Virus record (IMG/VR): IMGVR_UViG_2663762945_000005
Coordinates: 1 to 4,320 of that record
DNA from: a virus
Lineage: Duplodnaviria > Heunggongvirae > Uroviricota > Caudoviricetes
Length of the DNA: 4,320 nucleotides
Direction: 5' to 3' (one strand)
In this document: piece by piece, positions 1 through 4,199 of the stretch
How positions within the stretch are numbered: the first letter of the stretch is position 1
Layout: each line of letters begins with the position of its first letter
Translations under genes and position numbers: made by a program
The notes under the pieces: model-generated
What the model was told of the DNA's origin: nothing
Seen by the model: the letters and a program-made list of their open reading frames with translations, nothing else
The model's database searches: none

Positions 1-92
1 AATTATCTTTAGTAATCACTAAACAAGCAAATACTTGACTTAATGGTTTATTAAACACTAAACTCACAAAAAAACACTAAACCGAGGAAGGT
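1..92 (+). promoter_or_regulatory. Putative early-right promoter/operator region upstream of the cro-like gene. Candidate -35 TTGACT (35-40), 18-nt spacer, candidate -10 TAAACT (59-64), RBS GAGGAAGG (84-91).
   Basis: AT-rich non-coding leader. TTGACT is a 5/6 match to the sigma70 -35 consensus and TAAACT a 4/6 match to -10, keeping the conserved T1, A2 and T6. Three direct copies of cactaaac (17-24, 56-63, 75-82; the last two extend to aaacactaaac at 53-63 and 72-82) lie in or beside the promoter elements. Imperfect palindrome tttagt-aatc-actaaa (8-23) and perfect palindrome gttta-t-taaac (46-56). Confidence 0.45.
8..23. promoter_or_regulatory. Candidate operator: 16-bp imperfect inverted repeat TTTAGT-aatc-ACTAAA.
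   Basis: The arms at 8-13 and 18-23 are exact reverse complements, separated by a 4-bp centre. It sits just upstream of the candidate -35, the usual place for a repressor operator in an immunity region. Confidence 0.35.
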
Positions 93-395
93 ATGACATT
101 AAAAGAGTTTATTAAATCATTAAGGGTTGGTGATGCTAAGAAATTCGCGGCCAGACTTGGTGTATCGCCATCTTACTTATCGCAAATGGCGTCTGGACGA
201 GCAGCTATATCTCCAACCCGCGCCCTTATGATCGAATCTGCGACGGAAGGCCAAGTAAGTAGGGTGGAGCTACGACCCCATGATTGGGAGCTTATTTGGC
301 CTGAGTATGCGAGCGGCATTCGTTTGGGGCAAACACATGTAGTTCATGCTGAAGGTGATTGTAGTGCATGCTTATCTGATGGAGTTGATTCATGA
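93..395 (+). CDS. Cro-like HTH transcriptional regulator (YdaS-family-like), 100 aa.
   Basis: ATG at 93 preceded by RBS GAGGAAGG. Predicted HTH segment AKKFAARLGVSPSYLSQMASGRAAISP. First gene of a rightward operon directly after an operator-like region; stop TGA overlaps the next gene's ATG (ATGA at 392-395). Confidence 0.7.
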   Translation: MTLKEFIKSLRVGDAKKFAARLGVSPSYLSQMASGRAAISPTRALMIESATEGQVSRVELRPHDWELIWPEYASGIRLGQTHVVHAEGDCSACLSDGVDS

Positions 396-817
396 AAATC
401 AAGCATGAACACATCCGCATGGCGATGAATGTCTGGGCGCATCCGGACGGCGAAAAAGTACCGGCTGCGAAAATTACCAAAGCGTATTTCGAGCTGGGAA
501 TGACGTTCCCGGAACTGTATGACGACAGCCATCCGGAAGCCCTGGCCCGTAATACCCAGAAAATTTTCCGTTGGCTGGATAAAGACACCCCTGATGCTGT
601 TGAAAAAATGCAGGCTCTGTTACCGGCGATCGAAAAGGCGATGCCGCCTTTGCTGGTGGCCCGTATGCGCAGCCACAGTTCTGAATATTACCGTGAGATC
701 GTCGAACGGAGGGATCGGCTGGTGAAGGATGTCGATGATTTTGTTGCGTCAGCGGTTGTTTTGTATGACCAGATGAATCGCGGCGGCCCGGCAGGGAATG
801 CTGTGGTGATGCACTAA
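392..817 (+). CDS. YdaT-family protein (CII-like regulator of Rac-type prophages), 141 aa.
   Basis: N-terminus MKIKHEHI matches my recollection of the E. coli Rac prophage YdaT N-terminus. RBS GGAG at 381-384. Translationally coupled to the upstream cro-like gene through the ATGA overlap. Position equals the cII slot. Confidence 0.7.
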   Translation: MKIKHEHIRMAMNVWAHPDGEKVPAAKITKAYFELGMTFPELYDDSHPEALARNTQKIFRWLDKDTPDAVEKMQALLPAIEKAMPPLLVARMRSHSSEYYREIVERRDRLVKDVDDFVASAVVLYDQMNRGGPAGNAVVMH

Positions 818-839
818 AAGCACGGTGTTCGGGGGTTTT

Positions 840-1802
840 ATGAGCAGCAAGCTTCATGGTCTTGTCTGGGAAGGGTGCGCCTTCACCGGCATGATCTTAT
901 CCAGGGTGGCGGTTATGGCCCGTCTTGCAGACTACAGCAATGACGAGGGTGTGTCATGGCCTGCCATTGAAACTATCCGGCGTCAGATCGGTGCAAGAAG
1001 TGAATCCACAGTGAAATCGGCTATTGCAGAACTGGCGAAAGAGGGCTGGCTGACGAAGGAAGAGCGTAAGGTCGGTGGGCGTAATGTAAGCAATATCTAT
1101 CGGCTTAATGTGGAAAAACTCGAAGCAGCTGCGGCGGCGGCGCGTGAGTCATATAAACCGAAAAGAAAAATTAGCCCGGCAAAAAATGACCCGTTAACAG
1201 TTGACCCGTCAAATATTGCCCCCTCAACGGTTGACCCGTCAAATTTTGATGGATCAACTGTTGATAAAAAACTGCCGATTAGGGGGGCGATGATTGACCC
1301 CGATCCGTCAGTATTAAAACCTGATCCATCAGATAAAAGATCTTCTTGTCCGGACGCTTCACAACCGGACCCGCAGACGGCTGAACAGGATTTTTTAACC
1401 CGACACCCTGACGCGGTTGTGTTCAGTGCGAAAAAACGCCAGTGGGGAAGTCAGGAAGATTTGGTGTGCGCACAGTGGATCTGGGGACGAATCGTGAGTC
1501 TTTACGAGCAGGCGGCCAGCGATGATGGCGAGATCACGAGACCGAAAGAACCCAACTGGACAGCATGGGCCAATGACGTTCGCACAATGCGGATGCTGGA
1601 TGGCAGAACTCACAGACAAATTTGTGAAATGTTTGGGCGTGTCCAGCGGGATTCGTTCTGGGTAAAAAACATCATGAGTCCGGGAAAACTCCGGGAAAAA
1701 TGGGATGAACTGGTTATCCGCCTGGGGTGTTCGCCTGCGCAACGTTGCGTGAATCACATTTCTGAACCGGACACTGAAATACCGCCGGGATTCAGGGGGT
1801 GA
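840..1802 (+). CDS. Phage replication initiator (lambda O-like): N-terminal winged-HTH DNA-binding domain, repetitive linker encoded by the iterons, C-terminal domain.
   Basis: N-terminal HTH-like segment ILSRVAVMARLADYSNDEGVSWPAIETIRRQIGARSESTVKSAIAELAKEGWLTKEE. The linker carries the repeated peptide TVDPSN, encoded by the DNA iterons. It lies directly upstream of a DnaC-like gene. I prefer ATG 840 (GGGGG at 831-835) over the ORF-track GTG at 825. Confidence 0.8.
   Translation: MSSKLHGLVWEGCAFTGMILSRVAVMARLADYSNDEGVSWPAIETIRRQIGARSESTVKSAIAELAKEGWLTKEERKVGGRNVSNIYRLNVEKLEAAAAAARESYKPKRKISPAKNDPLTVDPSNIAPSTVDPSNFDGSTVDKKLPIRGAMIDPDPSVLKPDPSDKRSSCPDASQPDPQTAEQDFLTRHPDAVVFSAKKRQWGSQEDLVCAQWIWGRIVSLYEQAASDDGEITRPKEPNWTAWANDVRTMRMLDGRTHRQICEMFGRVQRDSFWVKNIMSPGKLREKWDELVIRLGCSPAQRCVNHISEPDTEIPPGFRG
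1196..1342. repeat. Iteron array of a putative phage replication origin, embedded in the initiator gene: five repeats at about 30-bp (roughly three helical turns) spacing, with a GATC cluster.
   Basis: aacAgttgacccgtcaaat (1196-1214) and aacGgttgacccgtcaaat (1226-1244) match at 18 of 19 positions, with a perfect 14-bp core ttgacccgtcaaat. Degenerate copies: aactgttgat (1256-1265), ttgaccccgatccgtca (1294-1310), ctgatccatcaga (1321-1333). The core is near-palindromic (TTGAC..GTCAA). GATC at 1252, 1302, 1323 and 1339 gives four sites in 91 bp. Confidence 0.75.
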
Positions 1803-2576: not shown

Positions 2577-3347
2577 ATGGAAACCGTATCTGACGCACTG
2601 AAAGCACTGAAAAAAGCCTCTTCACATGTGGTGGCAGCTCGCCTTGGAATCAGTCGTGAAGAGGCTGTCAACGAGCTGTGGGAACTCAAAAGAAATGGCG
2701 TCGTTGATAAAACTGGTCACACCTGGTTTCTGGCTGGCGAAGGTGAATCCCGGGTAACCGAAGAGCGGCCAGTAAAATCTGAAGCACAGGATATGCTGAC
2801 CGGGGAGGTCGAACAAAAAGTTACCGCAGACATGATGATTGAGTTTATCGGTCAGGATGGGGCTAAAACGTGTGAGGAACTGGCGGGTAAGTTCGGTGTC
2901 AGTACTCGCAAGGTTGCTTCCACGCTGGCGGTGGTAACCGCAACGGGGCGGCTGGCACGCGTTAATCAGAACGGTAAATTTCGTTACTGCATGCCGGGCG
3001 ATAATTTACCAGCAGAGCCGAAAGCCGCGCTGGTAACGGAAAGTGATGGTAAGGCCTTTCCTCAGCCAGCAGGTGCTGCGTTACCAGTCCGGGAAGCCGC
3101 AACACAGGAAAAAATTAAAACAGAAACTGTGGCGGACATTGTGCAGTCGTTGCCATCGTTTACCGAAACGCAAGCAGATGAGCTGATTTTTCCGTCCCTG
3201 CGCAGGGCAAACCTGGCGCTGCGCAGGGCGAAAAGTGATGTTCAGAAGTGGGAGCGAGTCTGCGCCGCGCTGCGGGAGCTGAACAAGCACCGGGATATTG
3301 TTCGACAGATTACTGATTCTTCCCGCCGTGTTGTATCGGAAAAGTGA
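2577..3347 (+). CDS. Hypothetical protein, 256 aa, with two tandem winged-helix-like segments, an Ala/Pro/Glu-rich linker and a C-terminal helical region.
   Basis: Strong RBS GGAGG (2564-2568) 8 nt before ATG 2577. Two segments of similar pattern, SSHVVAARLGISREEAVNELWELKRNGVVDKTGHTWFL and KTCEELAGKFGVSTRKVASTLAVVTATGRLARVNQNGKFRYCM. Codon usage matches the neighbouring genes. No function assignable from sequence. Confidence 0.7.
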   Translation: METVSDALKALKKASSHVVAARLGISREEAVNELWELKRNGVVDKTGHTWFLAGEGESRVTEERPVKSEAQDMLTGEVEQKVTADMMIEFIGQDGAKTCEELAGKFGVSTRKVASTLAVVTATGRLARVNQNGKFRYCMPGDNLPAEPKAALVTESDGKAFPQPAGAALPVREAATQEKIKTETVADIVQSLPSFTETQADELIFPSLRRANLALRRAKSDVQKWERVCAALRELNKHRDIVRQITDSSRRVVSEK

Positions 3348-3785: not shown

Positions 3786-3842
3786 GTGAAATTAGCTATC
3801 AGGCTTCAATTACCGCTGGCATTCGCATCAAAGGAGAGGAGC

Positions 3843-4199
3843 ATGGAAATAAAACCAGAGGATGAGTTAAGCAATATCGTTTTATTTCCGGTAAAAGAGG
3901 ATGACCCTCGTAATCAGGTTAATTTTCTTTATGAGCCATCGGAAAGACCATATTGCCATCACGCCTCTGTTCGGGTTGACGAAAAAGAGCGTCAGGTCCG
4001 CTGTAAAATCTGCGGTGCAGTTGTGGAGCCGTTTGACTGGATGCTCTCTGTGGCGAAAAGAGAAACCAGACTGGCAGATGATGTAAGGCTATTGCGCCAG
4101 GAGGAACAGGAAAGGCGGAAAAATATAGAAAAGTTAATTCAGATTGAGCGTAACGCGAAAGCGCGGATACGCAGGGCGACAAAATCCAGAACTGAATAA
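3843..4199 (+). CDS. Hypothetical small protein, 118 aa, with a putative zinc-binding motif and a basic C-terminal coiled coil.
   Basis: RBS AGGAG (3832-3836) 6 nt before ATG 3843. The alternative in-frame GTG at 3786 abuts the upstream stop but has a weaker 11-nt spacing to AGGAGG (3769-3774). Motif YCHH-x13-C-x2-C; C-terminus rich in R/K/E (LRQEEQERRKNIEKLIQIERNAKARIRR). Confidence 0.6.
   Translation: MEIKPEDELSNIVLFPVKEDDPRNQVNFLYEPSERPYCHHASVRVDEKERQVRCKICGAVVEPFDWMLSVAKRETRLADDVRLLRQEEQERRKNIEKLIQIERNAKARIRRATKSRTE

Follow-up and report, generated by a model that had tools for sequence, protein, structure and literature searches.

Comparative sequence analysis of a CP-933P-type paaR2-ydaS control region favors inverted repeats as the unit recognized by its two regulators

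Introduction

Published experiments have already characterized the control region between paaR2 and ydaS of the Escherichia coli O157:H7 cryptic prophage CP-933P. This 97-bp region was studied by Jurenas et al. (2021, mBio; PMC8630535). Two promoters, PR933P and PRM933P, were predicted and both starts were confirmed by 5′ RACE (PMC8630535). Transcription from PRM933P begins at the paaR2 start codon, which makes the paaR2 mRNA leaderless, and the basal activity of this promoter is the weaker one (PMC8630535). Electrophoretic mobility shift assays gave specific multi-step shifts with both PaaR2 and YdaS (PMC8630535). In DNase I footprints, PaaR2 protects a continuous stretch of ~78 bp and YdaS protects stretches of 27 and 32 bp, with the PRM side filled first (PMC8630535). 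In GFP fusions, PaaR2 and YdaS each repress both promoters, and low PaaR2 appears to activate PRM933P while repressing PR933P (PMC8630535).

The same authors reported four 18-bp inverted repeats at equal spacing, built on the half-site GTTTAGTAA; IR1 lies over PRM and IR3 over PR (PMC8630535). IR2 and IR4 lack a left half, and three overlapping 'pseudosymmetrical operators' were also proposed. The authors noted a 'striking balance' of direct and inverted repeats and left the precise binding sequences to future work (PMC8630535). A PL-like promoter beyond parE2 was reported to match PR exactly in its −35 and −10 elements and to carry three similar operators (PMC8630535). PaaR2 is described there as an octamer in solution that has no peptidase motif, and its N-terminus was sequenced as MQKKE (PMC8630535).

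A viral sequence sharing this region was compared with its relatives. Transcription starts, binding, footprints, and repression are taken from the work of others, and sequence identity, site positions, and inverted-repeat conservation come from the present analysis.

Results

The window analyzed is a 4,320-nucleotide stretch of viral DNA. Positions 1–92 are 100% identical to the last 92 bp of the 97-bp paaR2-ydaS intergenic region of O157:H7 strain Balcarce_24.2 (locus L001, 4001–4092; full region, 3996–4092). The remaining 5 nt (GTGGT) lie to the left of position 1 and are absent from the window. Window 1–92 is the published paaR2-ydaS control region of the E. coli O157:H7 cryptic prophage CP-933P/Sp12. 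In E. coli, 552 complete genomes, O157:H7 strains included, match at least 80% of window 1–1200 at identities up to 99.7%.

The initial annotation had expected a divergent repressor gene just upstream, and the paaR2 start codon is found at L001 3995, 5 nt upstream of window position 1. In matching genomes, outside the window, the product of the upstream leftward ORF begins MQKKEIRRLRLKEW, with MQKKE as its first residues. Because this translation equals the N-terminus sequenced in PMC8630535, the upstream gene is paaR2. Three leftward genes are found to the left of the region in Balcarce_24.2: a 123-aa gene, a 63-aa gene, and a ParE/RelE toxin gene. To the right are the same genes as in the window, and the gene order is parE2-paaA2-paaR2 / ydaS-ydaT-O-like-DnaC-like.

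The first window gene, ydaS (93–395, plus strand), matches Pfam YdaS_toxin (6e-12) and HTH_3 as well as PDB 8c7k (2e-62). Its product is the Cro analog and binds the control region in mobility shift and footprint assays (PMC8630535). Positions 1–92 are thus an operator and promoter region upstream of a Cro-like gene, as had been proposed, and both regulators footprint there. The next genes are ydaT (392–817) and an O-like HTH gene (840–1802) downstream of it. A DnaC/IstB-like ATPase gene, a DUF1627 gene, and a DUF977 gene complete this set.

Several features were observed outside the control region. The ydaS and ydaT genes overlap as ATGA (392–395). A perfect YdaT box, TTGATTCATGAAAATCAA (TTGATT-N6-AATCAA), spans the ydaS stop and ydaT start at 385–402 and is the sole match in the window; it corresponds to the OM operator already published for YdaT, which lies close to the PRE933P promoter (PMC9986795). 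Inside the O-like gene (1195–1270), TTGACCCGTCAAAT occurs at 1201–1214 and 1231–1244 with a degenerate third copy, AACTGTTGAT, at about 1256–1265, giving a period of 30 bp. The TTGACCCGTCAAAT repeats encode a repeated TVDPSN peptide, and a repeat search reported the stretch at 1195–1270 as a 33-nt imperfect inverted repeat. Its repeats resemble the origin iterons inside a lambda-type O gene. After the DUF977 gene, window 3786–4199 holds an ORF with a weak zinc-ribbon match, and the O157:H7 counterpart (L001 7812–8396) is a DUF551 gene. This different gene suggests that the window may come from another mosaic prophage sharing the immunity region. The immunity and replication module is located in mosaic prophages that differ further right.

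The PaaR2 product is 123 aa in length, has no Pfam S24 match, and matches PDB 7nkv at 5e-41. Structures of its N-terminal domain (7nkv, 8c3k, and 8c3l) are named 'Phage repressor protein CI'. The YdaS structures 8c7k and 8co2 are named 'Cro', and the title of 8c7k reads 'Phage antirepressor protein Cro'. In a literature search, no relevant paper citing the PaaR2 or YdaS structures in the PDB was found. Over the HTH, PaaR2 and YdaS align with 37% identity (E value 8e-5 in a single comparison). They have a common motif, SYLSQ(L/M)xSGRA, at residues 26–36 of both proteins (about window 168–200 in ydaS). From these alignments, the DNA-reading heads of PaaR2 and YdaS appear to be paralogs, and the homologous HTH fits competition for the same sites.

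Direct copies of CACTAAAC at 17–24, 56–63, and 75–82 and palindromes at 8–23 and 46–56 had been listed in the initial annotation, and all are present in the sequence. The three copies are the sole exact matches on both strands of the 4,320-bp window (0.10 expected), and three copies were reached in 0/200 shuffles of the window. When the 92 bp were shuffled alone with dinucleotides preserved, a complex 8-mer was present three times in 2/5,000 shuffles. The copies extend to 11 nt as AATCACTAAAC, AAACACTAAAC, and AAACACTAAAC, and the third matches 53–63 at 11/11 positions. Both palindromes are exact, with 6-nt arms at 8–23 (TTTAGT-AATC-ACTAAA) and 5-nt arms at 46–56 (GTTTA-T-TAAAC). Alone, the palindromes were not significant in local shuffles of the AT-rich 92 bp: a palindrome with 6-nt arms was found in 15% of shuffles, and the observed number with 5-nt arms was reached in 3%. 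Their weight therefore derives from conservation and published footprints, not from shuffle statistics. Palindromes this short turn up singly often enough in local shuffles to suggest functionless chance repeats in AT-rich intergenic DNA. However, that explanation is practically inconceivable given the rarity of the threefold 8-mer, the invariance of the arms across two proteobacterial classes (below), and the specific binding published for the region, where footprints already refute it (PMC8630535).

The sites at 7–24 (CTTTAGTAATCACTAAAC) and 46–63 (GTTTATTAAACACTAAAC) are each one mismatch from GTTTAG-N6-CTAAAC (2 matches versus 0.08 expected), and the two palindromes are better described as parts of these 18-bp sites. 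A fourth, degenerate copy of the repeat, TGACTTAAT, which the initial annotation had not listed, is located at 36–44 over the −35 hexamer. Across the 9.2-kb O157:H7 locus, there was no significant overall enrichment of CACTAAAC with one mismatch (11 versus 6.5 expected), nor of the 18-bp pattern with three mismatches. In that locus, only the OR cluster and the PL-like cluster of half-sites stand out.

Every 18-mer was scored against the published half-sites GTTTAGTAA and TTACTAAAC, out of 9+9. The coordinates were reconstructed from the text description in PMC8630535. IR1 (7–24; CTTTAGTAA and TCACTAAAC) matches at 8+8, holds the palindrome at 8–23 and repeat copy 1, and fills the PRM933P spacer. 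IR3 (46–63; GTTTATTAA and ACACTAAAC) matches at 8+7, holds the palindrome at 46–56 and repeat copy 2, and covers the PR −10. IR2 is weak and placed with low confidence at about 27–44 (2+6). Its right half, TGACTTAAT (36–44), overlaps the PR −35, and its left half is unconserved. IR4 (65–82) matches at 3+7, with a right half, ACACTAAAC (74–82), that contains repeat copy 3 and a left half that is a run, CACAAAAAA. It lies around or just past the inferred ydaS transcription start. These scores fit the published scheme of four equally spaced 18-bp inverted repeats in which IR1 and IR3 are good and IR2 and IR4 lack a left half. IR1–IR4 together span 7–82 (76 bp), an extent that would fit the ~78-bp PaaR2 footprint.

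The right arms of IR1, IR3, and IR4 account for the three direct repeats. Right halves begin at 16, 36, 55, and 74, with start-to-start distances of 19–20 bp. In E. coli, conservation is higher in the right arms than in the left: three perfect CACTAAAC copies compare with CTTTAGTA and GTTTATTA. This asymmetry is not explained by pure dimer-on-palindrome binding by itself. The regulators, or the PaaR2 octamer, might instead read head-to-tail (A/T)CACTAAAC copies as primary units, with inverted symmetry secondary. The better-kept right arms would suit such a mode, as would three perfect 8-mers and a 6/9 fourth copy in a regular 19–20-bp register (16–24, 36–44, 55–63, and 74–82). So would the continuous ~78-bp PaaR2 footprint over an IR2 and IR4 without left arms, and the balance of direct and inverted repeats noted by the authors (PMC8630535). 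The relatives described below make it quite unlikely.

The initial annotation had placed a promoter at −35 35–40 and −10 59–64, and three lines of evidence agree with it. In a consensus scan of the plus strand, TTGACT (35–40) and TAAACT (59–64), separated by 18 nt, form the only strong promoter-like site upstream of ydaS. TTGA is invariant in distant relatives, the following C is at least 90% conserved, and TAAACT, made of the right arm of IR3 plus one T, is invariant as well. The published 5′ RACE agrees with the predicted PR933P (PMC8630535). The 5′-end mapping, footprinting of both regulators, and reporter fusions that had been suggested for this region are thus available in the work cited above. 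The ydaS transcript is predicted to start near 71, giving a leader of ~22 nt, and a ribosome-binding site, GAGGAAGG, is present in the sequence at 84–91 on the plus strand.

A leftward repressor promoter is a further feature that the initial annotation had not listed. Based on the sequence and the published start at the paaR2 start codon, the candidate PRM933P −10 is GATAAT (2–7, minus strand; reverse complement of ATTATC), 7 nt upstream of the A of the paaR2 ATG. The candidate −35, TTGCTT (25–30, minus strand), matches the consensus at 3/6 positions and is 17 nt from the −10, back-to-back with the PR −35. With these hexamers, IR1 exactly fills the PRM spacer. AAGCAA, in the PRM933P −35 region, is kept in several distant relatives. 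The weak −35 would fit the published weaker basal activity and the activation by low PaaR2.

Beyond parE2 and outside the window, a PL-like promoter was found on the minus strand of L001 (TTGACT-17-TAAACT, 3048–3020, with the −35 at 3048–3043). Its hexamers equal those of PR, in agreement with the identical PL and PR elements reported in PMC8630535. Operator-like sites GTTTAATAAACATTAAAC (3021–3038) and GTCAAGTAAAAACTAAAC (3043–3060) were observed in the same region, L001 3014–3060, which is consistent with the published PL933P and OL1-3.

A search for YdaS relatives returned 13 genome loci, mostly from Betaproteobacteria, and 80 viral contigs. Genera among the loci are Massilia, Achromobacter, Caballeronia, Paraburkholderia, Pararobbsia, Formosimonas, and Nitrosomonas. 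Nearly all loci have a divergent gene with a PaaR2-like start, M..[ED]IRR..L..W...P.KEKSY[FL]SQL. The regular expression found no such start in a few loci, and the product of one of these (L004, MEKDKIVALRRQRLKEW...) was recognized by eye.

Among 23 non-identical intergenic regions from Enterobacteria and Betaproteobacteria, two GTTTAG-N6-CTAAA(C/T) sites are present, one beside each gene. TTGAC lies between both sites, and the right-hand site supplies TAAACT through its right arm. In the arms of the two sites, information content averages 1.5 and 1.8 bits, versus 0.5 and 0.6 bits in their 6-bp centers. Because sites for this profile were chosen by pattern match, arm conservation is somewhat inflated, and a motif-free alignment was used as a control. 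In this alignment of 17 whole intergenic regions from diverged relatives, the same arm columns are invariant: TTTA(G) and (C)TAAA of IR1, TTGA(C), and TTTA.T and TAAAC-T of IR3. A further invariant column is the G in the AAGCAA / TAGTAT block between IR1 and the −35. IR3 is the most conserved block in relatives. A weak middle site, AATTAG-N6-CTTGAC, in the betaproteobacterial regions has 4 mismatches and overlaps site A (IR1) by 3 bp, and was not counted as an operator.

Betaproteobacterial prophage loci L003, L005, L007, L009–L014, L081, L083, L086, L087, L092, and L095 have minimal switches of 70–72 bp, in which the intergenic region ends at locus position 1500, or 512 in L087. Each ATG is 7 nt past a TAAACT from the outer operator arm, and no Shine-Dalgarno sequence is present. 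These features suggest that the CI-like and Cro-like mRNAs would both be leaderless. In the 70–72-bp betaproteobacterial versions, no counterpart of the third copy (the IR4 half-site), the ydaS leader, or its ribosome-binding site was found. In Massilia L007, the PaaR2 homolog (774–1430, minus strand) is 218 aa in length and has a Peptidase_S24 domain. It is paired with a YdaS-family Cro (1501–1830) and a CP76-family CII (1897–2340), and a second S24 protein adjoins. This set suggests that the PaaR2-type N-terminal domain, Cro, and operator form an old module. The E. coli PaaR2 N-terminal domain would thus belong to a classic cleavable-CI lineage, with a swapped C-terminal domain.

Of the repeat pattern, the two inverted-repeat sites recur in related immunity regions, but the third CACTAAAC copy was found only in the enterobacterial relatives sampled. 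In another enterobacterial lineage, whose YdaS is 74% identical, the equivalent place holds a half-site, CTAAAT or CTAAAG, within otherwise different sequence. Among 55 near-identical CP-933P-type loci, substitutions and changes in the length of the A run (6–8 A) cluster at 64–73, the unconserved 'left half' of IR4, and positions 74–82 are invariant in 15 sequence variants. Variants of the IR3-IR4 linker (64–74) include TCAC, TCGC, TCTC, TCGA, and TTGC, one A-to-G change in the run, and runs of 6, 7, or 8 A. One of them turns the PR −10 into TAAACC.

These comparisons favor dimer recognition of inverted repeats. Distant relatives have two sites only, which are symmetric and invariant in both arms, and the third copy that would extend a head-to-tail array is confined to enterobacterial relatives. 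Among near-identical prophages, the length of the A run separating IR3 from IR4 changes by ±1, so the register of direct copies is not strictly kept. PaaR2 and YdaS are small HTH regulators, which commonly bind inverted repeats as dimers. Half-sites in one orientation that have no conserved inverted partner, as expected of an asymmetric operator, are limited to IR2 and IR4, in E. coli. The initial suggestion that direct repeats indicate a binding mode unlike the lambda palindromes is therefore not supported for the core sites, as the copies are right arms of inverted repeats whose inverted unit is conserved. It is weakened without being refuted by experiment, since the authors left the use of both direct and inverted repeats open (PMC8630535).

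The third copy (75–82) might not be an operator, and might instead be a duplicated remnant or a ydaS leader RNA element gained with the Shine-Dalgarno-containing leader in the enterobacterial lineage. It lies downstream of the inferred start, within the ~22-nt leader. Nothing comparable is present in the 70–72-bp relatives, themselves leaderless, and its 11/11 match to 53–63 is as expected from local duplication. However, protection past IR3 is required to account for the ~78-bp footprint of PaaR2 and the 32-bp stretch of YdaS (PMC8630535). The half-site in the diverged enterobacterial lineage keeps the same relative place, and 74–82 is invariant beside a variable 64–73. A non-operator role is thus unlikely.

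Discussion

The analyzed region is very probably the right operator region of a CP-933P-type lambdoid cryptic prophage, in which 18-bp inverted repeats shared by PaaR2 and YdaS operate a bistable switch. Two back-to-back sigma-70 promoters would be located within 97 bp, with PR933P driving ydaS-ydaT rightward and the weak PRM933P driving a leaderless paaR2-paaA2-parE2 transcript leftward. PaaR2, the CI analog, and YdaS, the Cro analog, would compete for GTTTAG-N6-CTAAAC sites. PaaR2 on IR3 and its neighbors IR2 and IR4 would block the −10, −35, and start site of PR. Occupancy of IR1 would block PRM, the side that YdaS favors. The half-only IR2, at the PR −35, and IR4, at the start site, are probably filled cooperatively through contacts within the PaaR2 octamer. 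PaaR2 would turn PR off at low and PRM off at high concentration, and YdaS would turn PRM off first and PR later, resulting in a bistable switch. The placement of a dimer at each site and the filling of half-only sites are what we infer from these data.

In a broader and doubtful, though possible, version, octameric PaaR2 would use the 19–20-bp head-to-tail register (16–24, 36–44, 55–63, and 74–82) to set four dimers abreast, holding IR2 and IR4 through one half-site each and protein contacts. Such a mixed inverted- and direct-repeat operator would be an enterobacterial derivative of an older 70-bp switch, with two sites and leaderless in both directions, that is shared with S24-type CI repressors of Betaproteobacteria.

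That this bistable prophage switch also governs the paaA2-parE2 toxin-antitoxin pair of O157:H7 is already published. Two modest findings are added here: the cross-class conservation of a two-site inverted-repeat core, and a third repeat confined to the enterobacterial relatives sampled. The operator arms, −35, and −10 form an old module in enterobacterial and betaproteobacterial prophages, which argues for the inverted, not the direct, repeat as the recognition unit. The comparison of intergenic regions shows the extra half-sites and the ydaS leader as probable later additions. The conserved core could guide mutagenesis or co-crystal work to define where PaaR2 and YdaS bind.

The CP-933P OR region is the same element as window 1–92: the sequence is identical, and flanking genes, leaderless paaR2, repeats, and promoters are the same. 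Lambda OR also has divergent PR and PRM promoters in a short intergenic region and a leaderless repressor mRNA. In both systems, two HTH proteins whose site preferences are opposite compete for one set of inverted-repeat operators, further operators accompany a PL-like promoter, and the repressor is oligomeric (an octamer). However, four abutting 18-bp sites, two of them half-only, are present here versus the three 17-bp pseudo-palindromes OR1–OR3 of lambda, which are bound by CI and Cro and set apart by AT-rich spacers. The CP-933P half-site GTTTAG is unrelated to that of lambda, and the CP-933P −10 lies inside an operator arm. Unlike in lambda, PaaR2 has no S24 autocleavage domain, and homology between PaaR2 and YdaS is detectable. 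In function the region resembles lambda OR, but it is not a member of that group by sequence or architecture.

The Rac racR-ydaS region of E. coli K-12 has the same layout of a repressor gene divergent from ydaS-ydaT and the same YdaT box at the ydaS-ydaT junction. In contrast, CP-933P YdaS is reported to be only 26% identical to Rac YdaS (PMC8630535), and Rac YdaT also binds the intergenic region, which CP-933P YdaT does not. Betaproteobacterial regions encoding CI (S24), a YdaS-type Cro, and CII (CP76), such as Massilia L007, have GTTTAG-N6-CTAAAC arms in two sites, a TTGAC −35, and a TAAACT −10. Their Cro and repressor N-terminal domain are homologous to those of CP-933P. They differ in an intergenic region of 70–72 bp without a third or fourth site or a leader, a repressor that carries Peptidase_S24, and a CII of the CP76 family rather than YdaT.
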